DNA of 64,000 nucleotides from a virus. A model generated the notes under the pieces. It worked only from the letters and a program-made list of their open reading frames with translations. It searched no databases and was not told where the DNA came from. The first letter of the stretch is position 1; every line of letters begins with the position of its first letter. Shown in pieces: positions 4,878 to 60,882 of the stretch. Location: IMG/VR virus record IMGVR_UViG_3300045812_000062; one strand, written 5' to 3'. Both the position numbers and the translations under genes were made by a program.

Positions 4878-5264
4878 ATGTCTTATAAAATCGAAAAGGC
4901 CAAAAAAGAATTGCGATCCGCTCTTAAAGACGCTGGCGTACATGGTCCTGGTGGCAAAATCCTCAACGCGGTCAATAAAGTAGTTGAAGCTCACCTGGAA
5001 GGCTATTTAAGGGCTGAAGATGTCGATGCTGCGCTCGCAGATAAAAATGCTGAAATCTCTCGTCTAAAGACGCGTTTGTATGCGCTTGAATTTCTTGAAC
5101 CACTTAACGATGATCAAGAAGAATTCTTAAATAAAATTCGGCCTCTGAATGAAATCATCGACGCGCTTTACGAGCATCGCATTGATGCTAAAACCGCAGA
5201 TGAAATGTGCCGAGCGCTACACCCGTCAGATCAAACAGAAACTTTAACGACGGGGTTTAAATAA
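4878..5264 (+). CDS. hypothetical protein carrying NKIRPLNEIIDALY motif shared with 42182-43876
   Basis: AAGGA RBS; 20/26 aa identity to a segment of the 564-aa coiled-coil protein. Confidence 0.75.
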   Translation: MSYKIEKAKKELRSALKDAGVHGPGGKILNAVNKVVEAHLEGYLRAEDVDAALADKNAEISRLKTRLYALEFLEPLNDDQEEFLNKIRPLNEIIDALYEHRIDAKTADEMCRALHPSDQTETLTTGFK

Positions 5265-22331: not shown

Positions 22332-22696
22332 CATCCATTTTATCAACACATGGCAGCAATTAAACAAGTGAGGCATTTTATGAGTGTGGAGAACGATTTT
22401 CACAGTGAGTTTGGCACTTGTAGTTCTGCCAAGTTTGCCACTCTAAGTGTTAAACAGCACATTAAACGAATATTTTTATGTGTGGTTATTATAGCGACCT
22501 CAATTGTCTACCTGAGTATGACCTCTGTATTGAATCTATTTTCTAACGGTTCAATACATGAGGTAATTATCGTATTTCACTCCCTCCTTACATTTTTTGT
22601 ATTATTATTGATTTCAGTTTCCATATGCCGTCTGTTTCAGTCATTGAAATCACTAGCTTCTATTCATTTCCAGTCAGATCAAAACCGGAGTTCATA

Positions 22697-24220
22697 ATGA
22701 ATAATTTGGCCGATCTTCGTTTGAAGCCTTGTCCATTTTGCGGCCGCGAAGCTGTCAAAATGCGTGGAAACAAAGAACACGAATGGCAATTCGTGTGCGC
22801 GGATTATTATGATGATGTTCCGGAATGCAGTTCACAACCGATGACGCATATCTACGACATCGTCCATGAAGCGGTAAAAGAATGGAACACGCGCTTTAAT
22901 GATCGTCCTCATGGCAAGCTCGTGGGCTATCTGACGTCAACATCCGAGGACGGTCAAGACAATCGGTTCTGCGCCCTTAAAGATTATGATCAAGATATTC
23001 ACGCGACCGAATTCACTATTCCTGTCTATGCGGACGCGGTTGCGGATTTGTCTCCATATCCTGCCATGCCGATTGCCTATCGTTGGCTTTCGAAACCGGA
23101 TCAGTCAGATGACATCTGGAGTTATACAAATGCGGATAAAGAGCCGTCATTTACTCCAGAGTTCAAGAATGAACACAAGTTTCAGGCGGTGTATGCCGAG
23201 GAATTACGGACGCATTGCAGCGATCTGCTAAAGCGGCTTGCAACATCTGACTGGGCCTACGAAGCACAGCATCTGCAGCTGAAGGCCGCCGAAAACGAGA
23301 TTGCCGACTACAAGAAGCGTATTGCCACCCTTGAAGCCGAGGTTAAGGCCTATAAGGCAACAGGCGTCATCCCTGCTAATCCAGCCAAGGATGATGGTTC
23401 TGTTCCTGTCATCGATTATAAGCTTAAGCCCAAGGATTGCCCATGGTGTTACTCAACGCCTAAGGTGACAGCACCTGATCACGTTAATTACAAAGTGGTT
23501 TGCAGCGCGCAATCTAACGATGAACATTGCATCTGCTCACCTGAGACCGCACCTCATTACTCCAAGGAAGCTGCAATTGCTGACTGGAACCGAACCATTG
23601 ATCAAAAAGTCATCGACGGCTTCACGCGTGGCGAAATCGCGGAAGTCCTAAGACCTTTTGCGTCGTTCGCCGGATGGAACGTTGATGACGATGGTTGGAC
23701 AGACACCAATCAGAGGCAACCGATCACTACCTGGTTTGGTCCTAGCGATTTCCGAGCAATTATGAAACTCGCAATCGCACTTAAGGATTTTAATCCAAAC
23801 ATGGCATATCGCGACTCCGATCTTCTTACTGAGATTGGAATTTTAAAGCGTGAAATAGAAAAACTGGAAAAGAATGACTTGTTTACGCGGGAATGGCACG
23901 CAGTTCGCCTACGTAAAATCGAAGAAATCGCCAAGCGTGAGAATTTATGGGATGAAATTGCAGCAGTAATTGCTAACGGTCAATCCACACGAACGCTACC
24001 AGATGGAACGCATTTCATTGATCCAGACAATTTCGGATTAATGTTGAATTCGGCAAAATTTCGAGCGGACGCAGCCAGCCAAAGGGCGGATCGTTACAAG
24101 ATTGCACTCAAAATCATTAAACGGGTAGCAGGACAGGGATCAACGACGCCATCTTCGATTATTCATCAGGTGATTGATGCTGTTGAATATGAGGAAGCCA
24201 GTTGGGAGCGATTAAGTTAG
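22697..24220 (+). CDS. mosaic phage protein with two Lar-like (restriction alleviation) zinc ribbons
   Basis: LKPCPFCG...VCAD...AVKEWNTR and KPKDCPWC...VVCS...AAIADWNR; GGAG RBS. Confidence 0.7.
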   Translation: MNNLADLRLKPCPFCGREAVKMRGNKEHEWQFVCADYYDDVPECSSQPMTHIYDIVHEAVKEWNTRFNDRPHGKLVGYLTSTSEDGQDNRFCALKDYDQDIHATEFTIPVYADAVADLSPYPAMPIAYRWLSKPDQSDDIWSYTNADKEPSFTPEFKNEHKFQAVYAEELRTHCSDLLKRLATSDWAYEAQHLQLKAAENEIADYKKRIATLEAEVKAYKATGVIPANPAKDDGSVPVIDYKLKPKDCPWCYSTPKVTAPDHVNYKVVCSAQSNDEHCICSPETAPHYSKEAAIADWNRTIDQKVIDGFTRGEIAEVLRPFASFAGWNVDDDGWTDTNQRQPITTWFGPSDFRAIMKLAIALKDFNPNMAYRDSDLLTEIGILKREIEKLEKNDLFTREWHAVRLRKIEEIAKRENLWDEIAAVIANGQSTRTLPDGTHFIDPDNFGLMLNSAKFRADAASQRADRYKIALKIIKRVAGQGSTTPSSIIHQVIDAVEYEEASWERLS

Positions 24221-32890: not shown

Positions 32891-33982
32891 TCAATCCTCA
32901 ATGCCGTATGTATCTCCATCATCTGCATCAGGACCACTATTATCAAGCAACTGATCTGCAATAAGCCCTGCATCAGCCCGCAGCTTTTCCGCGATTTCAT
33001 CGCAAATCTCAGGGTTCTCTTTCAGGAACTGTTTGGCATTCTCACGTCCCTGACCAAGACGCACTGAATTGTACGAGAACCAGGCTCCAGACTTTTCAAC
33101 GACGTTGGCCTTCCCACCAAGATCAACGATTTCTCCAGTTCTCGAAACGCCTTCACCATACATAATGTCGAATTCAACCTGCTTGAAGGGAGGAGCCATC
33201 TTATTCTTGACTACCTTCACACGGGTCTGATTACCAATGACTTCATCACGTTCCTTGATGGAACCGATACGGCGAATATCGAGACGGACAGAAGCGTAGA
33301 ACTTGAGAGCATTCCCGCCAGTCGTGGTTTCCGGAGAACCAAACATTACACCGATTTTCATGCGGATCTGATTGATGAAGATCACGAGCGTATTCGACCG
33401 TGAAATTGTCGCCGTCAATTTGCGCAAGGCCTGAGACATCAAACGGGCTTGTAACCCTGGCAACGATGCCCCCATTTCACCTTCGATTTCTGCACGAGGT
33501 GTAAGGGCTGCCACAGAATCCACGATGAGGACGTCAACTGCTCCTGAGCGAACAAGGGTTTCCGTAATCTCAAGAGCCTGCTCTCCAGTATCCGGCTGCG
33601 AGATCAGCAAGTTATCAAGATCGACACCGAGCTTGCGTGCGTAAACAGGATCAAGCGCATGTTCGGCATCGACAAATGCACAGATGCCACCTGACTTTTG
33701 GGCTTCAGCGATAGTATGGAGGGCGAGGGTAGTCTTACCGGAACTTTCAGGCCCATAGATTTCGACAATACGCCCTCTTGGAAGCCCACCAATACCCAGC
33801 GCGATGTCTAGTGACAGGGAGCCAGTCGAGATAGTCTTGACTTCCACAACCTGATCATTGGCACCGAGTTTCATGATTGAACCCTTGCCGAATGCACGTT
33901 CGATCTGAGACAGCGCTGAATCCAGCGCCTTCTCTTTATCTGTAGTATTGCCTTCTACAAGCTTGAGGGATGCCTTTGCCAT
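32891..33982 (-). CDS. recA: recombinase RecA
   Basis: [50 protein letters not shown]; ATG at 33982. Confidence 0.99.
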
Positions 33983-34015
33983 GGTCGCCGCCTTTCTGTT
34001 CGATTGACGGCGCTT

Positions 34016-34030
34016 GTACACGGTTTGTTC
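34016..34030 (-). promoter_or_regulatory. alphaproteobacterial LexA (SOS) box of recA
   Basis: GAAC-AAACCGT-GTAC (GAAC-N7-GTAC) about 35-50 nt upstream of the recA ATG. Confidence 0.75.
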
Positions 34031-34070: not shown

Positions 34071-37000
34071 CTACATACTCATCGAAGGACGATTATCATC
34101 TTCATCATTATCTGGTGTTCTAGGAGCAGGGGTTGATTTCGGTTTTGGACCTTTTTGGGGTTCCCATTCAAACCCGATGCTGTCTAGCAGGTCTATCCTG
34201 GACTGCGGCAGTTTCTTTGCATTATAAGCGACTCTCTGAGTGCCTACCCACGATCCCATAGACGAACCATCGGAGAACGCAATGTCTTTATCTCCCCGCT
34301 TAGGATACTCACCGCCATTATCTTTTAGATATTGATCAAATTCTTGTACTTTTTCTTCAAAAGTCATTCCGTACTCCCATTTAAACCCGATGCTATTTAG
34401 GAGTTTTATTCTGTCCTGCGGCATTTTATCTGCATTATAAGCTGTTCTCTGTGCATTGACCCACGATCCCATAGACGAACCATCTGAGAACGTATTGACT
34501 TTATCATTCGACTTAGGATGCACACTGCCATTATCATTTAGATACTGATCAAATTCTTGTACCTTTTGTTCAAATGAGATGGCCCCCCACTCAAACCCGA
34601 TGCTATCTAGCAGATCTATCCTGGCCTGCGACATTTTCCCTGCATTATAAGCTGTTCTTTGTTGACTAACCCACGATCCCATAAAACTGCCATCGAAAAA
34701 CGTAGTGTCTTTATCCCTATTCTTAGGATACACCCCGCCATTCTCTTTTAAATATTGATATAGTTTTTGTACTTTTTCTTCAAAAGTCATTCCGTATACC
34801 CATTTAAACCTGATACTATTTAGGAGGTCTATTCTTGCCTGCGGCATTTTATTTGAATTATAAGCTGTTCTCTGTTGACTGATCCACGCTCCCATAGACG
34901 TTCCATTGGAGAACGTACTGTCTTTATCATCCCACTTAGGATACCTTCCGCCATTATCTTTTAGATATTGATCAAATTCTTGTACCTTGTGTTCAAATGA
35001 AATGGTCCCCCACTCAAACCCGATGCTATTTAGGAGGTCTATTTTTTCCTGCGATAATGTATTTTCTTTACGGTCGTATCTCAGTGTGCCGACCCATCTT
35101 CCCATAGGTTTCCCATCGGAGAACGCAATGTCTTTATCTCCCCACTTAGGATACACGCCGCCATTGTCTTTTAGATATTGATCAAATTCTTGTACTTTCT
35201 GTTCAAAAGTCAAATTGTATTCTTTATCAACCCATTTAAACCCGATGCTATTTAGGAGGTCTATTCTAGACTGCGGCATTTTCCCTGTTTTACAATCTTG
35301 TCTCTGTGTATTAACCCACGATCCCATAGGCTTTCCATCGGAAAACAGAACATCTTTATTCGCAGCTGCAGGATACTTACCGCCATTATCATTCAGATAT
35401 TGATAGAGTTCTTGTACTTTTTCTTCAAAAGTCATTCCGTCTACCCATTTAAACCCGATGCTATTTAAGAGGTCTATTCTGGACTGCGGCATTTTTCCTG
35501 CATTATAAGCTACTCTCTGTGTGTTGACCCAAATTCCCATAGACGAACCATCAGAGAACTCAGCTTCTTTATCTCCCTTCTTAGGATACTCCCCGCCATT
35601 CTCATCGAGATACTTATTCAGTTCAGCGACACGCGTTCTAAACGATGCCAGCTTATTGACAATTTTTGTCTCAATAATTCTTTCGATGGTTTCAGACAGG
35701 ACAAGATACTTAGGATTTTGTTGTTCATTTGCGCCTGTATGAATAATACGTCTGCTTAAATCTTCTCTCGCCGCTTTAATACGTTCCTCATCTCCAGACC
35801 CGCGGGCGGAAGCCATCTCATTGATGACAGCCATCAAATCTTCATCTTCTGCCGCAAGGGCATTGATGACGCGATAAAGTGTGGAATATTCTGCACTCTC
35901 GGCAACTTCTTCAAGCGTCTGACCTGGCTTTCGATCCATCACAACCGGAAGAACGACATAGCCAGTTTCTTTATTTGCTGATTTTCGTGTGACACGACCA
36001 ACCGCCTGAACAATATCGATGCCACTTTCACGATTATCGACAAACGCAACCATATCAATATCAGGAACGTCGACGCCTTCCGTCATAACCTTGGCATTAG
36101 TAATGATGGCCGGATTCCTCTGCCCAAGAATAGACACCTTCTGCGCACGTTCTTTTGCAGACATCTTACCGCTAACGAAATTCACGTTCCAATTGTCCGG
36201 CATGACCTCGTTCATGATATTAGATAATCTTTGCGCAGAATTTGTTGTCGTTTGATAGGTCACAACGTTCCGAGCGCCAGTTTCTTCAATGACCTTTTTC
36301 ACAGCTAAGGCTGCCGCTGCATCATCTCGGTTAAGCTCCAACTTACCTGCCTGAACAAGAGCATTATTGTAATGATCAGCTTCGTCTTTAAACATAGCCG
36401 CAATGACGATTTTAAAGGGAACAATGACCTCGTCTTTTACAGCTTCTGCGAATTTATATTCATGAGCAACGTGACCATAAGTCTCCTCGTTATCCATTGA
36501 ATACGCATAACTGTCGTCCTCATCGTTGTTCTTTTTGATGTTCATAACCCTTGGCGTCGCAGTCATAGACATGCGCTGCAGAATGGGAATTCTGTCGTCA
36601 TTAAGAGGGTAGGTGAACGCACTCTCATCGACAGCCTTTCTCTCTCCCTGCACAGCTGTTCGGTGTGCTTCGTCCAGAATGCCGAGATTGAAGGCTTTGA
36701 ATGTTGTGTCTTTAATGGCTTCGCTTAAAACAGGCGACGACTGATAAGTACAGAATGTGACCTTCAATTCATCCTTTTTCCGAGGACGATTGAGATAGTT
36801 TTTAATCGTATCGACATCGGTCGTCGTAAAGCACTTCAAATCTTCGACCGTTAAATCAGCGTTTTCCTCACCAATCCGTGGTACATCGCCTGTAACGGTG
36901 TTATCCGAACAGATCGCTTGAAATGAGTAGTTCTCTCGATCTGCGAATTCGTCAGCCCAGGATTCAATTGTCTGTTTCATCAGGTTCAGACTGGGCACAA

Positions 37001-37853
37001 AAACGACGACATCTCCACCTTTTTTATAAACATCGCTTGTAAACCGCGACGACACAAAGGTCTTACCCGTTCCACATGCAGAGATATACTGAATGCGATC
37101 ACCTTTGGAGAACCCGCTTTTAATATTCTTAAGTGCACGGTTCTGATCCGGCCTCGGATTTTTCTTTTTTCGTTTCTCATATGAATTTTTATTGATGTAA
37201 TCAATGATCTGCTGAATGCGATCTTCCGACAGGCTAATAAGATCGTCATAGACTATCTTGATACGGTTCGACCCTTTTAATTCCGGGCCTTTGTTTTCCG
37301 CATCTATACGAGCGCCAGATGTAACCAAAACCTGACCATCTGCAGCTTTGGACTGATCATAAAACGTAGTCACGGCTTTATATGTAATTGACGCATTCGT
37401 ATTGGTTACATATTTGTCCTGAACAGTGAATATACGTCCGATATTGTCAATAAATACAAGATCAATGCCGTTGTCTTGATCTTTATCCTGAAGGCCTAAT
37501 TTCTCAATAGCATAACGACGATTTTCATCTATAACACCATTATCCCCAGGCTTGAACGCATAGACCACTCTCAAGGTTGGATCAGTCATGATCATCCCGT
37601 GAACAAACGTTTCGAACAGATCTCCTTTTAACTTATTTAGCGCTTTGTCGTCTTTATCTTGTTTTGATCGGCCACCCAGTACAGCGCCCTTGATTGCATT
37701 GACAACTGCCGTTCCTGGATTTTCACCGCTCGAAACGTTTGCAATTGCATCATGAATATCGTCATAAGTACGGATTTCACGGTTTTTCAACACATGGGTT
37801 TTAAATAGAGTTTTGTCTTTCTGAGAGATCATATCGTCATTTCCAAAATTCAA
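34071..37853 (-). CDS. Mrr-like nuclease + SF2 (DEAH) helicase + 7 helicase-associated (HA) repeats
   Basis: GIDLV...VQDKY nuclease motif; ACGTGKT, DEAH, TATP, EGVDVP, QAVGRVTR; seven ~70-aa repeats ending RIDLLNSIGF.W. Confidence 0.9.
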   Translation of the reverse strand: MNFGNDDMISQKDKTLFKTHVLKNREIRTYDDIHDAIANVSSGENPGTAVVNAIKGAVLGGRSKQDKDDKALNKLKGDLFETFVHGMIMTDPTLRVVYAFKPGDNGVIDENRRYAIEKLGLQDKDQDNGIDLVFIDNIGRIFTVQDKYVTNTNASITYKAVTTFYDQSKAADGQVLVTSGARIDAENKGPELKGSNRIKIVYDDLISLSEDRIQQIIDYINKNSYEKRKKKNPRPDQNRALKNIKSGFSKGDRIQYISACGTGKTFVSSRFTSDVYKKGGDVVVFVPSLNLMKQTIESWADEFADRENYSFQAICSDNTVTGDVPRIGEENADLTVEDLKCFTTTDVDTIKNYLNRPRKKDELKVTFCTYQSSPVLSEAIKDTTFKAFNLGILDEAHRTAVQGERKAVDESAFTYPLNDDRIPILQRMSMTATPRVMNIKKNNDEDDSYAYSMDNEETYGHVAHEYKFAEAVKDEVIVPFKIVIAAMFKDEADHYNNALVQAGKLELNRDDAAAALAVKKVIEETGARNVVTYQTTTNSAQRLSNIMNEVMPDNWNVNFVSGKMSAKERAQKVSILGQRNPAIITNAKVMTEGVDVPDIDMVAFVDNRESGIDIVQAVGRVTRKSANKETGYVVLPVVMDRKPGQTLEEVAESAEYSTLYRVINALAAEDEDLMAVINEMASARGSGDEERIKAAREDLSRRIIHTGANEQQNPKYLVLSETIERIIETKIVNKLASFRTRVAELNKYLDENGGEYPKKGDKEAEFSDGSSMGIWVNTQRVAYNAGKMPQSRIDLLNSIGFKWVDGMTFEEKVQELYQYLNDNGGKYPAAANKDVLFSDGKPMGSWVNTQRQDCKTGKMPQSRIDLLNSIGFKWVDKEYNLTFEQKVQEFDQYLKDNGGVYPKWGDKDIAFSDGKPMGRWVGTLRYDRKENTLSQEKIDLLNSIGFEWGTISFEHKVQEFDQYLKDNGGRYPKWDDKDSTFSNGTSMGAWISQQRTAYNSNKMPQARIDLLNSIRFKWVYGMTFEEKVQKLYQYLKENGGVYPKNRDKDTTFFDGSFMGSWVSQQRTAYNAGKMSQARIDLLDSIGFEWGAISFEQKVQEFDQYLNDNGSVHPKSNDKVNTFSDGSSMGSWVNAQRTAYNADKMPQDRIKLLNSIGFKWEYGMTFEEKVQEFDQYLKDNGGEYPKRGDKDIAFSDGSSMGSWVGTQRVAYNAKKLPQSRIDLLDSIGFEWEPQKGPKPKSTPAPRTPDNDEDDNRPSMSM
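34158..35647 (-). repeat. seven ~210-bp coding repeats (HA domains)
   Basis: Recurring aaacccgatgctatttaggaggtctatt-type units at ~210-bp period. Confidence 0.9.
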
Positions 37854-39105: not shown

Positions 39106-39825
39106 TTGTCATGGGGGTGCAGGTTGACAACGGTAAATCTTTGGGTTGCATGTAAAGGGTGCCAAAAGCAAATTCCAGTTTCTGCAAAGACATGTCCACA
39201 CTGTGGAAAGTCTCGCCGTCGTATTACACCTTTCAGAATAGGTGTTGGATTTGCCGCAGTAATTGGGATGCTTTGGCTTATTGGGTCCAATAACGATAAG
39301 ACCACCGAGGCACGTGTTGCTGAAGCACCGATTTCAACTAACGTTAACGTGGCTGAAGTCATTCCAACGGATCAAGCTGAGTTCATTAAAACTGTTTCTG
39401 GCTATATTAACGCCTTCAGGAACACAAAGAACGAACTTCAGCAATCCATGTTGCGCGATGAACGGAAGAAATCAATCTTGTATGCTCTCAAGTCCGGCAA
39501 AGCTGTTAGCGGTTGGACGGGAACGATTTCCCACCTTGAGACAACGAGCAAAGGCGACGCCATCCTTGGCATCCGGATTGCCGATAAAACCATCATCAAA
39601 ACTTGGAACAATTCGTTTTCCGATTTGAGCGACAGCACCTTAATCACCAAGGGGTCCACGCTTTTTAACGCGTTATCGTCGATGTCAGTCGGAGACAGTG
39701 TTTCGTTCTCTGGTAGCTTTTCGCCGTCTGACACTGATGGCATCAGAGAGACCAGTGTGACGCTTAGAGGTTCTATGACTGAACCCGAATTCCTTTTCCA
39801 TTTCAAAGATGTCTCACTACGCTAA
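39106..39825 (+). CDS. zinc-ribbon, single-TM protein with extracytoplasmic domain
   Basis: CKGC...CPHCG, TM IGVGFAAVIGMLWLIG; start uncertain. Confidence 0.7.
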   Translation: MSWGCRLTTVNLWVACKGCQKQIPVSAKTCPHCGKSRRRITPFRIGVGFAAVIGMLWLIGSNNDKTTEARVAEAPISTNVNVAEVIPTDQAEFIKTVSGYINAFRNTKNELQQSMLRDERKKSILYALKSGKAVSGWTGTISHLETTSKGDAILGIRIADKTIIKTWNNSFSDLSDSTLITKGSTLFNALSSMSVGDSVSFSGSFSPSDTDGIRETSVTLRGSMTEPEFLFHFKDVSLR

Positions 39826-39837
39826 GGAGAGTGTAAT

Positions 39838-40170
39838 ATGGCTATGATCAGTTGTCCCGAGTGTCAGGAATCCATTAGTGATTCAGCATTCAAATGCCCA
39901 AAATGCGGTGTTCAGTTGAAGAAACTGAAACGAGGCTTCATGGGGAAAATCTTCAAGTGGGGCTTCATTCTCTTTAACCTTCTGATGGCTTGGTGGCTCA
40001 TCGGTGGTTTCATGGCAGCCACGGATGGATACGATAAGCTGAATAGCGCAGAACAAACTGGTGCCGCTATTGGCACAAGTATCGGTGTGATGCTGATCCT
40101 GGGTATCTGGGTTATCGGAGACATTATCTTAGGTCTCTTTGTGATGTTTACCCGTCCGAAGGCGTCGTAA
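39838..40170 (+). CDS. zinc-ribbon, two-TM protein
   Basis: CPECQESISDSAFKCPKCG; AAGGAG RBS. Confidence 0.8.
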   Translation: MAMISCPECQESISDSAFKCPKCGVQLKKLKRGFMGKIFKWGFILFNLLMAWWLIGGFMAATDGYDKLNSAEQTGAAIGTSIGVMLILGIWVIGDIILGLFVMFTRPKAS

Positions 40171-41846: not shown

Positions 41847-42181
41847 AAAAGTGCCATTTCCAGATTGTTCTTTTTATCAATTATGTGGGCTATTTATGAA
41901 TAGCACATCTTACAATTCGTTCCGATTGAAAATGAACGTTTATTACAGGTGAATCTGTGGCGATTTATTGCGAAACAAGCTCAACACAGGCTATTTGAGG
42001 ACGAATTTTTAATAAATTAGAAAATTAAAATCAGGAATTTGTCCGAAATTTTCACATCCGCCCCTTTAAATGAATAAAATAAGTTGACAATCATCCTTTA
42101 ATTATAGGAAATAAGTCGAAGTTATCGATCATCCATAGTTCGTGATTTTTATCGATAAATAAACAAACGAAGGGAATTTAA

Positions 42182-43876
42182 ATGAGTGATGCAGCCAGCC
42201 TGAAACTATCGGCAACAAAGAATGAAACGCCATCGGAGCGCGTGCGCTATCGTAGCCGCACTACGACCGAAGAAGGCCCTCTGGCCAATATTCAGGAAAA
42301 TACGTTCTACAAAATTATTTTCAATCCTGAATTCAGCCCTGAGCAAAAGATGGAATCAGCGGCCAAGGCGCTGGAATTCACTGAGAATAAAGAAGAAAAC
42401 CGCACACGCCTAAAGGAATTCGACTCCTTTAAGGAATATATGAATGCGGTTTCCGAAAAGATGTCGAAGGATCGCATCAAGCTTACCGACACTGAGGTTT
42501 TTGCTGAACTTCAGAAGAACTACGGCGATCTCCAAATTGATCTTGAGGATTTTTTCAACAAAATCCGTCCACTGAATGAAATTATCGATGCGCTTTATAA
42601 GCTTCGTGTCGACGGCAAAACGCGTGCAGTTCTTGATCAGATCCGTGAAGATCAGGAATGGGAAGCCAATATCCTGGTTCAGAAGGAAGATCTTAGCAAC
42701 AAGATCAACGGGATCGTTAATTCGATTCGCCAGACTGAAGCGTCCATCAAGGATCTTGAAGTCAACAACGTTGCACTAGCTCAGGATAAGGGATTTTTCG
42801 GGTACGGCCAAATCAAGGCTGCTTCGATGACACAGATCAAGGTCAACGAAAAGCTGATGGAAGATCGCCGTCAGGAAATCGTGAAGCTACAGGAGAGCGT
42901 CGAAGTTTTCCGTGGAGATCTTAACAAGCTCGATAGCGACATCTCAGAGCGCATGAGCAACCGCCCTGACTCGTTTGAAATCGGCAAGCTTCGTGAACTT
43001 CTCGACCTGACCAGTGATCAGCATACTCAGCGGCAGGCTGACATGGTTGCTGCGGCGCTGAAGTTCGTCGAATCCGGTAAAGAGCGTTTTGGTTCTATTC
43101 GCAATTCTTTGGACAAAATGGTTACGCAGATCGACGGTCTTGGTGACAACAATACCAGCATGATCCAGATCACGGCCGTTCTTAACGAAGCGACCAAAGT
43201 TGCAGAAACGTCGAACCAGAAGAAGCGTGAAGAATATTCAAAGATTCCGGATGACGCAAATCTGATTGAAAAGATGCGCCTTCAAACGCTTCAGCAGGAT
43301 ATCGAAGAGCATATCGATGTTCTTAATACGGCAGCTGTTGATACGATGCAGTCGTATGGCGAACTGACAACCGAAGCGATCAAGATTCGTAACATGCAGG
43401 CGGCCACTAAGAAGCAGGTCGAGTCCGCTCGGACGATGCATTCTCGCGGCATTGCAAGTGTTGCAAGTCAGCTGAGTACGGTACTGACAGCAGTTAATGC
43501 TGCTGGCATTACTGAAGCTCATGCGATGGCAGCTAATACGCTCAACGAAATGACCCGTGTGACCAATGAAATCGCTCAGAAGGAAGCAATTCGTATTGCG
43601 ACCTCTCGCGATGATGTGAATAGCGATCTTGAAGCTCTGCTGAAGACCCTTGAAGATTTCGGCGACACTCAGCGTGAAGCAACCGACATCACTCGTGGGG
43701 CGCTTTCCGACATTCGTCATAACATGGCTGCACTTGAAGGTCTGTCGCGCGACGTTCAGGACGAAACCCGTGAATTCGTGGGTGTCGCGGCCGATGTCGT
43801 TGGCAACGATAAATCAAAGGTCGAAAAGCCTAAGAATACGGGCGCTGCTTCGCCATTCAACATTTCGGGGGTATAA
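42182..43876 (+). CDS. all-helical coiled-coil protein, C-terminal half TelA (toxic anion resistance)-like
   Basis: AAGGG RBS; helical pattern of the C-terminal ~150 aa resembles TelA by eye; TAATG coupling to the ATPase. Confidence 0.6.
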   Translation: MSDAASLKLSATKNETPSERVRYRSRTTTEEGPLANIQENTFYKIIFNPEFSPEQKMESAAKALEFTENKEENRTRLKEFDSFKEYMNAVSEKMSKDRIKLTDTEVFAELQKNYGDLQIDLEDFFNKIRPLNEIIDALYKLRVDGKTRAVLDQIREDQEWEANILVQKEDLSNKINGIVNSIRQTEASIKDLEVNNVALAQDKGFFGYGQIKAASMTQIKVNEKLMEDRRQEIVKLQESVEVFRGDLNKLDSDISERMSNRPDSFEIGKLRELLDLTSDQHTQRQADMVAAALKFVESGKERFGSIRNSLDKMVTQIDGLGDNNTSMIQITAVLNEATKVAETSNQKKREEYSKIPDDANLIEKMRLQTLQQDIEEHIDVLNTAAVDTMQSYGELTTEAIKIRNMQAATKKQVESARTMHSRGIASVASQLSTVLTAVNAAGITEAHAMAANTLNEMTRVTNEIAQKEAIRIATSRDDVNSDLEALLKTLEDFGDTQREATDITRGALSDIRHNMAALEGLSRDVQDETREFVGVAADVVGNDKSKVEKPKNTGAASPFNISGV

Positions 43877-46002
43877 TGAAACATACAGTTCGCGGCAGTG
43901 AATATCTGGCCGACTTCACGAACTTCAAGCTGAAGGGGCGTGATGCCGATCTCGAACGCATCTCGTCTATCCTGATGCGAAAGACGTCGAACTCTCTCCT
44001 GCTGGTAGGTCCAGCAGGAGTAGGGACGTCTGCACTTATGCTTGGTCTTCAGGCCTCCAAGAATGATCCGGAAGCTCCATTCGACATCGTGTCCAAGCGA
44101 TTGTTCTGGCTTGACACCGATTCACTTTTTGCAAGTGGTGACGGCGCTGAAATCAATTCAGATTTCCAGAAGATTCTGCGCCAGCTGGAAGCGACACCTG
44201 AATCTGTCTTGATTATCGAGAACACATTCAACTTCATCGAAGCAGCGCGCAACACGGGCAATCCGCACTTTATCAATGCGCTCAATCTGCTCGTCCGCAA
44301 AGACAAGACCCAGGTTATCCTTGAGGTTCGCGACGAACAGCTTACACAGGTTCTCAAGTGGCATTCCGACGTCGCAGAAGCATACACGCTTTACGATGTT
44401 CAGGAACCAGTTGGCGCAATCCTGCAGGAAATCGTCTACGAAGTCTCTATCGGTTTGGCTGATTTCCATAAGGTCCAAATCGATGATAGCGCAGTTCTTG
44501 AGGCCATCAGACTGACGAGCAAGTATCGTGACAGCCTGGGTCTCGGCGGCGCACAACCTGCACGAGCTATTTCATTGCTCGACAGGGCGCTTTCAAGCTA
44601 TCGGCAGCAAGCTCATCGCAAGCATCCTATCCTTGTAAAGCTGGAACTCGATATCCAGAACGAAACCGACAAGGCAAAGGTACTCGAACTACAGAGCAAA
44701 CACCTTCAGATCACAAAGGATTGGGACGCCCTCCAGACCGAAATTCGCAAGACGTACAAGTCTCAACGCGATGGCGAAGAACTTTTGTTCAAGCTACATG
44801 ACGATCTGGAAGCCGCACGCAAAAAGAAGCAGCCAGAACCTGAGTTTGCGGTAGCTCCTCAGTCCTTTGCGGAAATTGCTGGATCAGGATTGGAATCGCC
44901 TGAAGCCGCTAAGATCAATACGAACATTCGTGCTATCGAAGCGGAAGTTGCCGCAAATCGTGATCGTCACAATGAGCTGGTTTTGATTGCAAACCGCGAT
45001 CTGCTACTCGACAGCAGAGCCGTTGTTTCCGAGTTTAGCAAGATTTCCGGCATCGCAGCTGATAAGCTTGATGCCAATGAAATGGAAAACCTGCGTAACC
45101 TTGAAGCAAATCTGCTTTCTCGTATTTATGGTCAGGATGACGCAGTTAAGCACATCGCCAACTCGATCAAGGTTGCGAAGGTCGATGACCTTAATGAAGC
45201 TGGTCCAGCCGCAAGTTACCTGCTCCTAGGTCCTTCTGGTGTGGGCAAGACCGAAATTGCAAAGGCTCTTGCGCAGTATGTAGGTGGTGATGAATCGGCC
45301 CTTGAGCGCTTTGATATGTCCGAATACATGGAGAAGCATGCAGCGGCAAAGCTCATTGGCGCACCTCCCGGATATGAAGGTTTTGAAGCTGGCGGTATCC
45401 TGACAAACAAGGTCCGAAAGAAGCCTGTAGGCATCTACCTGTTCGATGAAATCGAAAAGGCGCATCCTGATGTTTTCAATATCTTCCTTCAGATTTTGTC
45501 TGATGGTCGTCTGACTGATAATATCGGACGAACGGTAGATTTCAGCGAAGTCATTATCATTATGACCTCGAATATCGGTCAGCCATTCTATCTGGACGTC
45601 AATCTCACCGACGAACAGGCTCAGACCTATGCGACCGAAGAGCTGAATAAAACCTACCGTTCCGAGCTACTAAACCGCTTTAACGGTCGCGAAAACATTC
45701 TGCACTTCAAGCGTCTCGGAATTGATAATATTCAGAAAATTATCAAGCGTGAAATTACCAAGCTTAACAAATCTTATGAAAAGCGCGGTTTGGTAATCAA
45801 CATTTCCGACGAGTCCATTAGGCAGTTCTGTGAATGCCATTATGATCCGACAAGAGGCGCTCGTGGCCTTCCTGGTTACATCAAGGCTAACTTGCGTCCG
45901 ATTATCGTAAACCACATTCTGGAAAACCCGGAACAGGTTGGCGTATTCGAGGTGGCGTTTAACAGCGAAACCAGGAATTTCGTAGTCGAATTCAAGGACT
46001 AA
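43876..46002 (+). CDS. ClpB-like AAA+ ATPase with degenerate NBD1 and intact NBD2
   Basis: NBD1 GPAGVGTS / IIENTF; NBD2 GPSGVGKTE, RFDMSEYME, KLIGAPPGYEG, LFDEIEKAHPDVFNIFLQILSDGRLTD; no N-domain. Confidence 0.9.
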   Translation: MKHTVRGSEYLADFTNFKLKGRDADLERISSILMRKTSNSLLLVGPAGVGTSALMLGLQASKNDPEAPFDIVSKRLFWLDTDSLFASGDGAEINSDFQKILRQLEATPESVLIIENTFNFIEAARNTGNPHFINALNLLVRKDKTQVILEVRDEQLTQVLKWHSDVAEAYTLYDVQEPVGAILQEIVYEVSIGLADFHKVQIDDSAVLEAIRLTSKYRDSLGLGGAQPARAISLLDRALSSYRQQAHRKHPILVKLELDIQNETDKAKVLELQSKHLQITKDWDALQTEIRKTYKSQRDGEELLFKLHDDLEAARKKKQPEPEFAVAPQSFAEIAGSGLESPEAAKINTNIRAIEAEVAANRDRHNELVLIANRDLLLDSRAVVSEFSKISGIAADKLDANEMENLRNLEANLLSRIYGQDDAVKHIANSIKVAKVDDLNEAGPAASYLLLGPSGVGKTEIAKALAQYVGGDESALERFDMSEYMEKHAAAKLIGAPPGYEGFEAGGILTNKVRKKPVGIYLFDEIEKAHPDVFNIFLQILSDGRLTDNIGRTVDFSEVIIIMTSNIGQPFYLDVNLTDEQAQTYATEELNKTYRSELLNRFNGRENILHFKRLGIDNIQKIIKREITKLNKSYEKRGLVINISDESIRQFCECHYDPTRGARGLPGYIKANLRPIIVNHILENPEQVGVFEVAFNSETRNFVVEFKD

Positions 46003-46064
46003 CAACGATTAGTGGCGTCAGGCAATAAAGTTTGACGCTACACTTTTAAAACTCCGAGGATAAT

Positions 46065-46685
46065 ATGGAAGATATCAAAAAGTTCTTATCGAACAGTCGG
46101 TTTATTATCCAGTTTCTGGCTGGATTGCACTTTGTGTGGGATCGCGTCCTCGGACCTCCGCGCCGTATTCTCCTTAAAGTTCTCGGACGTTTTTTCAATT
46201 GGTATAAGGCCACTTGGAACCGCTATACATATGATAAATATGGTGGCTTCGTTTATAAGAGGGCAGGGATCATGACCACGGCAACGCTGGCGGTTCTCAT
46301 CATGATCCCAACATTTATCAGCCTATCATTTAATGCTGCTTTATTTTTCACGACATATCGCAGCGAACGGGTATATCTTTTCAATTCTGAAGAGATTTAT
46401 CCCGATGATAATATTTGGTCCATTCGTGGGTGCGAAATGGTGAACTGTGCTACAGAAAGCCTCTATTTCCGAGTGGCTCCATCACTTTTCAATCAAATCT
46501 GGAGTGTAATCTACAATCGGGAATTGTTCCTTGCTGACGACATTGCATCAGGCGTCCCTCCCGGCAAGACTGAATGTCATATTATTTCATACGGTGTCCG
46601 CATTAAGACCCTTATGAAGCGGTACGAAATTTACCCAGATGCTCTCTATATTGCCTGTGATGGCAAGAGACTTATGGACAATTAG
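46065..46685 (+). CDS. membrane protein, third gene of the operon (weak DUF1523 resemblance)
   Basis: GAGGA RBS; TM GIMTTATLAVLIMIPTFISLSF; C-terminal SYGVRIK...IYPDA. Confidence 0.65.
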   Translation: MEDIKKFLSNSRFIIQFLAGLHFVWDRVLGPPRRILLKVLGRFFNWYKATWNRYTYDKYGGFVYKRAGIMTTATLAVLIMIPTFISLSFNAALFFTTYRSERVYLFNSEEIYPDDNIWSIRGCEMVNCATESLYFRVAPSLFNQIWSVIYNRELFLADDIASGVPPGKTECHIISYGVRIKTLMKRYEIYPDALYIACDGKRLMDN

Positions 46686-52739: not shown

Positions 52740-52815
52740 TGGCGACCCCTGGAGGACTCGAACCTCCGACACCCGGCTTAGAAGGCCGGTGCTCTATCCA
52801 CTGAGCTAAGGGGCC
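52740..52815 (-). tRNA. tRNA-Arg(UCU)
   Basis: 76-nt cloverleaf, anticodon arm CCGGC-CTTCTAA-GCCGG, GGTTCGAGTCC, encoded CCA. Confidence 0.95.
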
Positions 52816-56792: not shown

Positions 56793-59700
56793 CTAGAACT
56801 TCACATTCAAGCTAGCATTGAAGCCATTCTGCGTAGTTCCGTTGCCATACTGCCCAACGTAACTCACACCAAATGTCGAGGCTTCAGTGATTGCCATATC
56901 GAACCCAACCTCTACGAGAGCGGCGTCCTTGGCAATCGGGGTTCCTTCCACTGTAAAGGCACTTCCTCCTGCAAAGAACTGTGAGGATTCCGGCGTGATA
57001 TCACCATAGGCGTGACGCCAGCCGAGAGTTCCCTTCAAGTTAGCCTTGGTTGCTCCGAACTGAAAAGGGGCCGAGGCGCGCAATCCGAGTGTTGTGAATG
57101 TTGTGCTAGTCGTTTCGCTATCGACAGACAGAGCTGCCGCTCCACCTTGTTCAGTGAAACCATCGGTGTGCAAACGAACGTGCGAGAGGTTGGCAAATGG
57201 CTCGAACGCAGCCACAGATGTATCAATGCGATATCCCAACTCACCGAAGGCCTGGAAGGTACGGGCATCGTAATCAGCAGCAAGGCTGTCGCTGAAGCCT
57301 GAGTAGGAAACAGATCGCGAAGAGTCGATGCTGTGCCAAGTATGGACGAGACCTGCACGCAGTCCAATTGGCCCCCACTGGTTACCGCCATAGATGCCCA
57401 GATGCCAATTGTCGCTCGTTGCCGAAGCATAACGTCCCTTGGCATCGAGATCGGTCTGGCTGTAACCACCGACAACGCCGAGACGCCATCCAGAGGCAAA
57501 TCCTACATCTACGCCGGACAAGAAGCCGCCAGTTGAAGTTTTCAGGCCACCTGCATTCGAGTTGCCGTCGTGATCAACCCAAGAACCGAAACCTGAGGCC
57601 CAGACGCCGTAATCATATGAAGCAGGCGCAACGGCTTCGAACGGTTGCGGTGCACTGCCTTTCGGTGACTGAGCGAACGACAGGACAGGGGCGTCCTTCG
57701 CAGCCACGCCTTCGAAGGCAGAACGTAAGCGATTGTTGATCGCATCCGCAGTCAAATTTGCTGTATCGATCAGGCCTGTCTTTACCGATGCATGCGTATC
57801 GCCTGACAGTTGGTTAAAGGCTTCCCGTGCTTCGTCTTCATTCGTCAGGAAGAGAACCGAGTTATACAGTTCTAGCGACGATCCGCTCTGTTCCAGGCCA
57901 TCCAATGCGCGAGCAGTTGCCACTTGATTGGTTGTCTGTGCAACCTTCTCGAAGACAACAGGCGGGGTTTCCGGATCAACTGGGTCAATTGGGTCTGCAA
58001 CCAGACCAACGGTCAAATCCACTTGGTTTGCCTGATAGCCAAGGGATGTTGTCAGGAAAACAGATTTGGATACAGCTTCATCGAACTGGCCATCAACGCC
58101 TCCGCCTGCGGTCAGGATCGTATAAGTCTGGCCGTCCTGATAGCTGACCTTAGTATCCAATGCATATACGTCAACACGGCCACCATTCAGGATTGCCTTG
58201 CCTGCGGCGTCGATACGGTCACTGGTCCCATCGCCTGCAACTTCAACCTCGTAAACGGAGCCAGCACCAAATGTAACGTCCCCTGCGACGGTCATTGTGC
58301 CAATGGAATTCCCAGGTCGTAGCGTTCCATTGGCGGTCAGATTACCACCAATGTTCCAATTTCCACCCATAAAGGACGTCTGATCAACAGCAACGCTTCC
58401 GCCAACAATAATTGGCGCTCCGATAGCACCACCGCGCGTAACGGAACCGTTGTTCAATTCAACATCGCCGCCAATTGTCGCTCCGGTTGCATGGAAAGTC
58501 AGCTGAGTTCCCGTGCCTACGACGTTTCCTTCTATTTCTGTCCCTTCAGCAAACGAAAGTTGTGTACCTGCTTCTGTGTTCAGATTGGTAATGCCGGAAA
58601 TTTTTCCATTGAATTTGGCATTCTCTTCAATCTTAACGTGGGTAGCTCCCGATCCTTTTTCGTCAAGATCCACAATGTCGCCGCTGGATTCTGAACCTGC
58701 CTTCAACGTCAGGTTCATCACACCGTCTTCGCCTTCGCCCGTACGGTTAACCTGGACCAACACACCGTTGTTCGCTGTTGCGACTGTTCCAGCGCCAAAC
58801 GAAACGTTTGCGATGTCGTCAGAAGCAGAGAGGCCGACAAGGATCGATGGACCCTGAACACTCTTAAGAACGGTGCCATCAACGGCAATAGTGCCGCTTC
58901 CATTAATCTCCAAAGCCGCAGCGTCAAGACCATTCGCAGTGACCGAACCACCTGTGAAATTTACCGCACCGCCATCTTTGACGAAAACACCAGAAGCGAA
59001 TTTTCCGTTTGTGACAACATTGGTGTTCGTTGCGTTGATAACGCCCGCGTCAGCACCTCTGTCATTGTTGGCAATCAATCCATAGCCATCTGCGCCAGTC
59101 GTGACGATTTCAGAGTCGGCAAGATCGATTGTGGAATATGACTCGGCAAATGCACCAAAACCATTCACGCCAGAAGTCGAAACTGAAACAGTTCCGGCAA
59201 TCTTACCGCCGTCAATTGCATGAAGACCAAAGGCATCGTTGCCGGATGTGACAACATTGGAACCCTCGTTCAACGTTATGACTGAATGATCTGTGCCGTC
59301 CGCAGTATTTCCGTTAGCACCAGCTTGAACGCCATGCGCCTTCGATCCTGATGTAGTAACCTGACTACTAGAAGTCAGCGTAGAATTCTTGGCTGCTAAC
59401 AGACCGAACGAGCGATCTCCGCTTGTATCTATGTTGCCGCCATTTAACTCGATATCGCCACCATTATCAGCGAATGCGCCATACGCCCAATCGCCAATAG
59501 TCACGATTTCTGTGTCAGTGGTTACGATTTTTCCGCCCTGCGAATTGCGGTCGTTGTTCGCAACGAGGGCATGACCACTCACGCCTGTCGTGGAAATCCT
59601 GCCACCAGTCTGACTGATTTCAGAGAAAGACTCAGCGAACGCGCCAAAGCCGTTCTTTCCAGCTGTATTAATGTCAGCCGAGCTGTTGATAATGCCGCCG

Positions 59701-60632
59701 TCAATGGCATGCATACCAAAAGCATCGCTTCCTTTTGTGGTAACCGATGCACCTTCGGTCAGTGTTATCACCGATTTATCTGAGCCATCAGCAGTGCTGC
59801 CGTTAGCGCCAGCTTGTACACCATGCGCTTTGGCACCATTTGTTGTAACCGCTGCACTTGATGTCACAATCGAATTCTTAGACGCCAGAATGCCGAATGC
59901 GCGAGCGCCCATTGTAGTGATCGTGCCAGCATTCAGTTCAATATCGCCACCATTGTCAGCGAATGCACCATGTGCCCAATCACCTGAGGTTTCGATAGTT
60001 GTATCAGTTGCTACGATTTTGCCACCAACTGCATTGCGATCATTGTTTGCGATCAGTGCGTGACCATTCTGGCCAGTGGTTATGATAGAGCCGCCCGTCT
60101 GGTTTATTTTTGAATAGGACTCTGCGAACGCACCAAAGCCGTTCTTTCCGCTTGTAGATATGTCGGCTGAGCTGTTGATCGTACCGCCATCAATCGCGTG
60201 AAGTGCGAACGCATCAGCACCTGCTGTCTTCACGACAATCCGTTCGCCTATTGTAAGTACAGATTGGTCCGAACCGTCTGCGTTCCCGCCCTTAGCTCCA
60301 ACTTGAGCGCCATGAGCTTTGTCCCCACTGGTTTCAATAAGTAATGAACCTGAGTTAAAAACATTGAGAGAAAGCGTGGAGGGGCTTGTTGGGCTTTTCG
60401 AAACCAACACTCCCCATGCTCTCTTACCTGGCCCAGAGGTTGACGCTTGGATTGAGTACTCTGAACCAAATGAGTACCCTCCATTAGACCCGTTTGAAAC
60501 AGATAGCGCGGCCTTATCTACAGCAGAGTAAATAGGAAATGGCTCAGCGTTGGAATAAAGGACGCTTCCGCTCAATAACGCGACGGCAGTGGACGCGAGC
60601 GTTAAAGACTTATTCTTCGTGGTGATCTTCAT
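56793..60632 (-). CDS. outer-membrane autotransporter (type Va) with repetitive beta-helical passenger
   Basis: Signal peptide; about three ~163-aa passenger repeats; GTLRPGNSIGT and autotransporter-associated motifs; beta-barrel ending ASLNVKF. Confidence 0.92.
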   Translation of the reverse strand: MKITTKNKSLTLASTAVALLSGSVLYSNAEPFPIYSAVDKAALSVSNGSNGGYSFGSEYSIQASTSGPGKRAWGVLVSKSPTSPSTLSLNVFNSGSLLIETSGDKAHGAQVGAKGGNADGSDQSVLTIGERIVVKTAGADAFALHAIDGGTINSSADISTSGKNGFGAFAESYSKINQTGGSIITTGQNGHALIANNDRNAVGGKIVATDTTIETSGDWAHGAFADNGGDIELNAGTITTMGARAFGILASKNSIVTSSAAVTTNGAKAHGVQAGANGSTADGSDKSVITLTEGASVTTKGSDAFGMHAIDGGIINSSADINTAGKNGFGAFAESFSEISQTGGRISTTGVSGHALVANNDRNSQGGKIVTTDTEIVTIGDWAYGAFADNGGDIELNGGNIDTSGDRSFGLLAAKNSTLTSSSQVTTSGSKAHGVQAGANGNTADGTDHSVITLNEGSNVVTSGNDAFGLHAIDGGKIAGTVSVSTSGVNGFGAFAESYSTIDLADSEIVTTGADGYGLIANNDRGADAGVINATNTNVVTNGKFASGVFVKDGGAVNFTGGSVTANGLDAAALEINGSGTIAVDGTVLKSVQGPSILVGLSASDDIANVSFGAGTVATANNGVLVQVNRTGEGEDGVMNLTLKAGSESSGDIVDLDEKGSGATHVKIEENAKFNGKISGITNLNTEAGTQLSFAEGTEIEGNVVGTGTQLTFHATGATIGGDVELNNGSVTRGGAIGAPIIVGGSVAVDQTSFMGGNWNIGGNLTANGTLRPGNSIGTMTVAGDVTFGAGSVYEVEVAGDGTSDRIDAAGKAILNGGRVDVYALDTKVSYQDGQTYTILTAGGGVDGQFDEAVSKSVFLTTSLGYQANQVDLTVGLVADPIDPVDPETPPVVFEKVAQTTNQVATARALDGLEQSGSSLELYNSVLFLTNEDEAREAFNQLSGDTHASVKTGLIDTANLTADAINNRLRSAFEGVAAKDAPVLSFAQSPKGSAPQPFEAVAPASYDYGVWASGFGSWVDHDGNSNAGGLKTSTGGFLSGVDVGFASGWRLGVVGGYSQTDLDAKGRYASATSDNWHLGIYGGNQWGPIGLRAGLVHTWHSIDSSRSVSYSGFSDSLAADYDARTFQAFGELGYRIDTSVAAFEPFANLSHVRLHTDGFTEQGGAAALSVDSETTSTTFTTLGLRASAPFQFGATKANLKGTLGWRHAYGDITPESSQFFAGGSAFTVEGTPIAKDAALVEVGFDMAITEASTFGVSYVGQYGNGTTQNGFNASLNVKF

Positions 60633-60882
60633 CTTAACCCCAAGCAAAATCTATTACCTGAGAGTTACTAACATAAGACATAAACAAGCAGCGCCAAGGT
60701 TCACAATAAACCCCAGTGTAAAAATATCTACTTGGTCTGATTACGCCCCACGCCACTAAACTCCCAATACCCGGAGACACGCATAACCGGTACAAAACGA
60801 TTCTGCAACCTGTGAGGGCACGATATGCGGCGGCCGCGTTAATTCGTTGCACAATTGCAACAAATATGAGGATGAGGCGAAC

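Follow-up and report, generated by a model that had tools for sequence, protein, structure and literature searches.

Locus and genes

We analysed a 64,000-nucleotide stretch of viral DNA (IMG/VR record IMGVR_UViG_3300045812_000062; hereafter the window) in which three genes on one strand, here called A, B and C, encode a long helical protein, a class-I Clp/Hsp100-like ATPase and a predicted inner-membrane protein. Comparison with other genomes confirmed that the three form a real conserved module. The original prediction, made from the letters of the window alone, had described a three-gene operon with its first two genes coupled by TAATG; the coordinates of the three open reading frames (ORFs) and the junction were both confirmed, with A and B overlapping at TAATG and 62 nt separating B from C. 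The promoter candidate upstream is weak, with 12 sigma-70-like sites in the region against a shuffled expectation of 8.2 ± 2.9.

42051-42080, + strand: sigma-70-like promoter candidate, ~100 nt upstream of gene A, matching the consensus at 10 of 12 positions
42182-43876, + strand: gene A, 564 amino acids (aa), from the ORF list
43876-46002, + strand: gene B, 708 aa, class-I Clp/Hsp100-like ATPase
46065-46685, + strand: gene C, 206 aa, predicted inner-membrane protein

Conservation and linkage of the module

Among the candidates scored, homologues of A numbered 430 after clustering at 90% and 308 after clustering at 50%, and none of them carried a Pfam name. Linkage was counted over 44 non-redundant loci, of which 40 had enough DNA downstream of A (at least 400 bp) to be assessed for B. 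A gene-neighbourhood check of these loci established that the trio co-occurs in other genomes: B lay directly downstream of A in all 40, including homologues down to ~22% identity, with a 60-aa ORF between the two genes in a single case. No gene of the B clade was found without A wherever upstream DNA was present. Pairwise identities of A and B were correlated (r = 0.96; 378 pairs from 28 loci), which shows co-inheritance and not contact.

C was found within a few genes downstream in 18 of the 33 loci having at least 4.5 kb of downstream DNA. Thirteen of the 15 loci without C belong to Gilliamella/Orbaceae and form one clade in a quick tree of A (support 85), sister to Orbus sasakiae, which retains C; outside this clade, C was present in 18 of 20 long loci. 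A search of five C-less Gilliamella/Orbaceae genomes did not find it elsewhere. The three-gene unit first proposed therefore stands for A and B, which were always linked, but not for C, which is absent from a whole clade, and the core of the module is A plus B.

The module was found in Alphaproteobacteria, Orbaceae and Desulfovibrionaceae, in the jumbo phage Atu_ph07 (A, gp493; B, gp492; C, gp488) and on several large phage-like contigs, among other carriers. No gene besides A, B and C was conserved beside the trio across distant loci. A search of a plasmid collection gave no homologue of A, and in a 401-genome phylum sample the only matches to A were the centre genome and one broken copy. We found no published description of the module in the open literature, where a 2012 Ter/TelA paper may mention it; its parts come from known families, in a combination that is undescribed.

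ATPase B

B aligned with solved ClpB and ClpC structures over residues 19-683 (phmmer E ~1e-81), and its domains and motifs are as follows, NBD denoting a nucleotide-binding domain:

43876-44610, + strand: NBD1, without the Walker A Lys, the Walker B Asp, the two Arg fingers or the pore Tyr
44611-45030, + strand: middle coiled coil, ~140 aa, with the motif F-x6-G-[FL]-[DE]-S-P
45031-46002, + strand: NBD2 and D2-small domain, with intact Walker A/B, sensor 1, R601 and GAR
45370-45381, + strand: acidic pore loop GYEG in NBD2

Databases annotate B as ClpB, and the Atu_ph07 paper lists gp492 simply as ClpB (PMC6102473). B does have the tandem class-I Clp AAA+ modules and middle coiled coil of a canonical ClpB, but it lacks a complete NBD1 and an N-domain, scores far too low against TIGR03346 and does not group with ClpB. 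Its bit scores against curated cut-offs were 370 versus 1232 for ClpB (TIGR03346), 264 versus 1900 for ClpG and 287 versus 1900 for ClpK, and it also fell far under the cut-offs for ClpA and ClpV. A FastTree phylogeny of NBD2 placed 17 family members in a single clade (support 1.0), separate from ClpA, ClpB, ClpV and viral Clp proteins. Each of the five host genomes examined has, in addition, a canonical ClpB scoring above the cut-off. Both results uphold the view of B as a dedicated ATPase. Just 44 residues precede Walker A1 in B, and no more than 55 in 125 homologues, leaving no Clp N-domain; an IGF/LGF-type ClpP-docking loop was found in none of the 125. Both absences, first noticed in the window, thus hold throughout these homologues, 112 of which also share a stretch of constant length (39 aa) between sensor 1 and the Arg finger.

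The degeneration of NBD1 is equally general. Relative to solved ClpB/ClpC, Walker A GKT is replaced by GTS, Walker B LFID-E by LIIE-N and the arginine-finger sequence ALERRF by DVAEAY. The Walker A1 Lys occurs in none of the 125 homologues (V, C, T, I, A, M or L instead), the Walker B1 Asp in 4 and the pore Tyr in 1, while neither finger position ever holds Arg (32 homologues have one a position earlier). The predicted loss of the Walker A Lys, the Walker B Asp-Glu pair and the Arg finger was therefore confirmed, with the qualification that the catalytic Glu position is usually Asp (114/125) and the Asn of the window is a minority state (11/125). Several residues of NBD1 are nevertheless retained, including the P-loop glycines, S/T52, G21-R22, D116, E150 and R230, so that the domain may still bind nucleotide. 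Ratios of nonsynonymous to synonymous substitution (dN/dS) for NBD1 were 0.02-0.06 over five gene pairs, near those of NBD2 (0.015-0.045), indicating that the dead domain is maintained by purifying selection and is not decaying. The single-ring remodeller of the original prediction is for this reason less likely than a double-ring hexamer with one active ring.

NBD2 contains GPSGVGKT, LFDE, the sensor-1 TSN, R601 and GAR. Its description as intact thus holds for the catalytic motifs but not for the pore loop, which is non-canonical and acidic: GY[E/D]G has E in 122 and D in 2 of the 125 homologues, versus GYVG/GYIG in 71/71 control Clp proteins. The long middle coiled coil is retained, as predicted. 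In ClpB, the LQYG motif of this region (Y503) is the DnaK site; it is absent from all homologues of B, where the family motif F-x6-G-[FL]-[DE]-S-P stands in its place. As judged from these motifs, the missing N-domain, ClpP loop and DnaK site argue against general disaggregation or proteolysis by B.

Protein A and its relation to TelA

The AlphaFold2 model of A is all-helical (predicted local distance difference score 76; predicted template-modelling score 0.52) with disordered ends at residues 1-32 and 540-564. A long hairpin (147-260) has a beta-turn between helices 147-200 and 213-260, with FFGYG at its tip, and the C-terminal half consists of three long helices (279-353, 361-474 and 478-541).

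42542-42622, + strand: A residues 121-147, a segment shared with an unlinked 128-aa ORF
42788-42811, + strand: hairpin tip KGFFGYGQ, family pattern K-x-[FW]-F-G-[FL]-G-G
43040-43768, + strand: A residues 287-529, TelA-like region (hhalign, shuffled nulls, Foldseek)
43850-43858, + strand: SPF motif ending the disordered C-tail

The hairpin tip is conserved among 129 homologues (F206, 73%; G207, 76%; G209, 85%) and is a candidate membrane-contact loop. The SPF motif is a candidate handle for recruiting the motor: P[FY] occurs within the last 15 aa of 55/129 homologues, versus a background of 0.7% per 15 aa, and 96/129 have an aromatic residue within the last 10 aa. Other conserved exposed motifs are I-x-x-N-[PT]-F in the N-terminal helix and the small-residue helix G423-A442.

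We compared A with TelA using a profile built from a clean 28-locus Pfam-envelope set. Residues 287-529 aligned collinearly with TelA columns 77-331 of 332 (hhalign P = 9e-4, versus 0.21 for reversed TelA), and across comparisons P ranged from 3e-4 to 9e-4 over 222-236 columns, with a probability of 23%, or 40% with a closer alignment. The score of 36.2 exceeded all 60 block-shuffled nulls (maximum, 34.2). When the model of the C-terminal half was searched against viral models with Foldseek, proteins named TelA or tellurite resistance ranked 2, 8, 9 and 37, with template-modelling scores (by query) of 0.45-0.48 for the first three, and ESM Atlas returned TelA-containing clusters for A by both features (0.88) and shape. 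First profile comparisons that used a contaminated or shallow TelA set were negative, and forward and reversed TelA could not be told apart by a gapless diagonal score. Full-length searches with the A fold gave generic coiled coils only, and no solved homologue was found by sequence. Comparison with ClyA/XaxAB, ESCRT-III/PspA and dynamin-like proteins likewise yielded only matches of a generic coiled-coil kind, none of them prominent (highest Z 12.4); XaxA ranked 48 (Z 10.0, rmsd 16.5).

Taken together, the profile and model comparisons make it probable that the C-terminal half of A is remotely homologous to TelA, although A is not a member of PF05816. The original TelA call, made by eye, survives in this restricted form, and in the accompanying fold check TelA models led while the suggested ClyA-like and dynamin-like relatives did not stand out. 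No xpaC or ter genes were seen among the recurrent or Pfam-annotated neighbours that were read, a set to which no dedicated profile search was applied.

Protein C

C begins with a basic, Trp-rich helix followed by one strong transmembrane segment at ~69-87 (family-mean Kyte-Doolittle hydropathy 2.19), bearing out its description as a membrane protein. The domain after this segment is probably periplasmic, and its beta structure contains four Cys conserved in 29-30 of 30 rows; because they are near-invariant, these residues suggest periplasmic disulfides. No match to C was found in Pfam, PF07509 (DUF1523) included. Direct comparison with the DUF1523 profile gave an hhalign P of 0.002 (reversed, 0.35) and a probability of 14%, and the Atlas returned DUF1523-containing clusters by features and by structure (template-modelling score 0.47 by query and 0.76 by target), the structure match being to a cluster in which 19% of members carry DUF1523. 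These results are suggestive of a distant DUF1523-like membrane protein.

Probable host element and neighbouring genes

The window is part of a ~1.0-Mb contig found across many Joint Genome Institute samples. In Mesorhizobium sp. SP-1A, a syntenic 1.19-Mb contig has a copy of the trio with 87-92% identity and also encodes its own DnaE and a ClpA-like gene (~949 kb; L020 / G002 contig C2), with a weak match to TraG/TraD-type coupling proteins. A terminase search of this sister contig gave no match, and a capsid search, which had no positive control, found nothing. Taken together, the features of the two contigs point to a giant extrachromosomal element. The window stretch is also present in 20 ant metatranscriptome runs. 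We considered these as evidence that the operon is transcribed and set them aside: the contigs cover flanks and intergenic DNA as evenly as the rest and reach lengths of 60-100 kb, and DNA carry-over is possible.

Other features of the window are listed below. The linkage of the zinc-ribbon pair to the trio is not kept in other loci.

22625-24220, + strand: 531-aa protein whose N-terminal part is a Lar restriction-alleviation zinc domain
34071-37853, - strand: nuclease-helicase-like protein with ResIII/Helicase_C domains and tandem HA repeats, adjoining a recA homologue (32891-34021)
39106-40170, + strand: two small zinc-ribbon membrane proteins upstream of the trio
52776-52808: tRNA-like stretch, where contigs of other organisms match in the read layout
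56793-60647, - strand: autotransporter, 1284 aa, PF03797 beta-domain (E 1e-68)

Several loci elsewhere depart from the arrangement in the window. In Mailhella-type loci (L019:865-2391, L076:1401-2927), B is shortened to 508 aa and is followed by C, and in a 2.2-Mb genome a broken gene A with stops and frameshifts lies beside a B-family gene (L059-L062, G051:C15:83058-84291). Most Gilliamella loci (L003, L004, L008, L009, L012-L015, L017) have A and B immediately after two genes that, judged by eye from their sequences, resemble groES and groEL. On two phage-like contigs (L191, L192) the trio sits beside genes for NAD salvage (phosphoribosyl pyrophosphate [PRPP] synthetase-like, NAMPT) or for Macro, ClpS or Band_7 proteins, which are typical large-phage counter-defence and membrane cargo.

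An unlinked ORF sharing a segment with A

A second copy of part of A lies far upstream in the window:

4878-5264, + strand: 128-aa ORF, in which bases 5115-5195 encode a diverged copy of A residues 121-147

The two segments are identical at 20 of 27 residues (blastn E 2e-9 within the window), and that of the 128-aa ORF is nearer to the A of this element than to any other family member save the Mesorhizobium copy. At 12 of the 20 identical residues the codons differ; the shared segment has therefore been under protein-level constraint, in the 128-aa gene or in a donor A gene. The original prediction had made this protein a regulator of the module in trans. As a general role this could not be sustained: Mesorhizobium SP-1A keeps the same trio, yet its syntenic orthologue of the ORF (48% identical) shows no related sequence where the segment would lie. 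No relatives of the ORF were found among viral contigs. By the comparison with Mesorhizobium the ORF is a lineage-specific feature that does not belong to the conserved module. That the 128-aa protein acts locally as an inhibitor or decoy is possible but improbable.

Comparison with known systems

Judged by sequence, the module does not belong with ClpB, ClpA/C, ClpV, Dodola or Pfam TelA. B resembles ClpB/Hsp104 (TIGR03346; PDB 1qvr, 6oax) in its two AAA+ modules, middle coiled coil, NBD2 motifs and lack of a ClpP loop, but differs in having no N-domain, a dead NBD1, no pore-1 Tyr, GY[E/D]G in pore 2, a replaced DnaK-site motif, a separate clade and fixed partner genes. From ClpA/ClpC it differs in lacking the IGF/LGF ClpP-docking loop (0/125). 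ClpV disassembles a structural partner encoded with it, and ClpV/TssH (TIGR03345) resembles B as a dedicated class-I Clp ATPase beside such a partner, an analogy of working only. The N-domain of ClpV binds TssC and the protein has two Lys-containing Walker A motifs, whereas B has no N-domain and one such motif; no type VI secretion genes were seen in the module neighbourhoods read. ClpV with its sheath and Vps4 with ESCRT-III are dedicated polymer-motor pairs, and the logic of A and B resembles theirs, with no homology to those partners being claimed.

A resembles TelA/KlaA/YaaN (PF05816) and the xpaC-telA pair in its long-helix layout, residues 287-529 being collinear with the C-terminal three quarters of TelA; both proteins occur in large phages and both travel with a small membrane protein. 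Unlike TelA, A is ~150-200 aa longer, with an extra N-terminal part, and has an obligate Clp-like ATPase, and its partner is the DUF1523-like C where that of TelA is XpaC. C shares with DUF1523 (PF07509) a transmembrane segment, a beta domain and Y-R and YG[WI]R...[FY]P motifs in register, but has in addition four conserved Cys and a basic N-terminal helix and lacks a clear C-terminal transmembrane segment. Dodola (DolA and the ClpB-like DolB) and PADLOC PDC-M37 are also two-gene systems with a Clp-D2-like ATPase. The NBD2 of B matched the DolB (E 1e-24) and PDC-M37B (E 1e-39) models, which at 375-518 positions cover the NBD2 region of B only, and A matched none of the PADLOC partner models, including the non-ATPase components of Dodola and PDC-M37. 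B also departs from the single-module ATPases of these systems in having two modules, and its partner genes matched no defence-system model.

Proposed mechanism and alternatives

The reading we favour, with a probability of about 45%, is that B serves as a motor dedicated to remodelling a TelA-like assembly of A at the membrane. It is supported by the obligate linkage of A and B, the dedicated Clp clade, the one working ring and the remote similarity to TelA. Under this model, A and B would form an obligate pair of substrate and motor, with C joining them as an accessory partner in the membrane. A would assemble reversibly at the cytoplasmic face of the inner membrane, and B would form a double-ring Clp/Hsp100 hexamer in which only NBD2 hydrolyses ATP, with NBD1 and the middle domain serving as a fixed scaffold and docking platform. 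By gripping a disordered tail of A, for which the PF-ended C-tail is the best candidate, and pulling A through its acidic GY[E/D]G pore, B would disassemble or recycle the assembly. C would cross the membrane with a disulfide-type periplasmic domain and would probably localise the assembly or relay an envelope cue. By analogy, the purpose of the module is likely envelope protection or exclusion of competing phages or elements, as proposed for TelA proteins, because TelA has been linked to tolerance of envelope-acting agents in Listeria and to nisin and tellurite tolerance (PMC12791056) and has been proposed as a sub-membrane structural component that jumbo phages use against superinfection (PMC7824862).

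Several points weigh against this model. Polymerisation of A, its membrane binding and its contact with B are all steps that we infer. The likeness to TelA is remote (hhalign probability 23-40%, template-modelling scores 0.45-0.49), and Pfam, PF05816 included, gave no match to A at E<=0.1 and none in 75 homologues at E<=0.01. A has no strongly hydrophobic segment (best family-mean hydropathy 1.02), and the absence of C from the Gilliamella/Orbaceae clade and from two further loci means that the module can do without a membrane anchor. In bacteria, the copies have housekeeping and metabolic genes as neighbours and do not lie in defence islands. A more elaborate version, in which A is a TelA-fold polymer and B a half-dead ClpB-derived hexamer that acts as disassembly motor, recruited by the PF tail and gated by a periplasmic DUF1523-like sensor, is speculative, and we hold it only as a tentative possibility.

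The same proteins could be arranged differently, with A as an adaptor or activator that replaces the N-domain or DnaK input, docks on the dead NBD1 or the middle domain and delivers specific proteins of the host or of a phage, such as envelope proteins or basic ones, to NBD2, while C positions the machine at the membrane. Class-I Clp ATPases often require adaptors such as MecA, ClpS or DnaK, and the constant lack of an N-domain in B, its family-specific middle-domain motif and conserved NBD1 surface, and the translational coupling or tight linkage of A and B would all suit such a role. What makes us doubt it is the form of A, whose 500-600 aa of very long, TelA-like helices and disordered motif-bearing tails resemble a structural subunit more, and the missing ClpP-docking loop, without which delivered substrates would escape degradation. 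In a switch for abortive infection or superinfection exclusion, A would instead be a membrane-disrupting or pore-forming toxin held inactive or triggered by B once C, or the pseudo-ATPase ring through nucleotide binding, has sensed a signal. The scattered occurrence of the module in distant phyla, on giant elements and on large phage-like contigs fits this, as do the conserved small-residue helix (423-443) and aromatic hairpin tip of A, the use of a ClpB-like ATPase in Dodola-type systems together with the DolB match of B, and the retained P-loop glycines, S/T52, G21-R22, D116 and R230, with which NBD1 may bind nucleotide. We nonetheless think it unlikely: no PADLOC model matched any of 75 A homologues, no alpha-pore-forming toxin stood out (XaxA, rank 48), the bacterial contexts are not defence islands, and the module is under strong constraint in related neighbourhoods of many Gilliamella genomes.

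Least probable is that B works alone as a general disaggregase or stress chaperone of the ClpG/ClpK/ClpL type and is carried as cargo, with A and C mere travelling neighbours. The ClpB labels in databases and the Atu_ph07 paper (PMC6102473) and the by-eye groES-groEL-like pair often found upstream of the Gilliamella copies would be accounted for, but the scores far under the ClpB, ClpG and ClpK cut-offs, the dead NBD1 and missing pore Tyr, the linkage of A and B in 40/40 loci down to ~22% identity and the canonical ClpB kept by the hosts all speak against it.

If the more elaborate version described above is true, the module would be a new bacterial and phage machine for remodelling membranes, parallel in function to ESCRT-III/Vps4 though assembled from unrelated components, which jumbo phages and giant elements would use to guard the host envelope or exclude competitors. 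TelA proteins are common, are tied to envelope-stress tolerance and occur on jumbo phages; with a TelA-like protein that is always paired with an ATP motor, how they act can be probed in a system of two or three proteins. B-family genes are currently mis-annotated as ClpB, Atu_ph07 gp492 included. Lacking an N-domain and having a dead first ring and an acidic pore loop, B amounts to a fixed experiment of nature on Hsp100 design.

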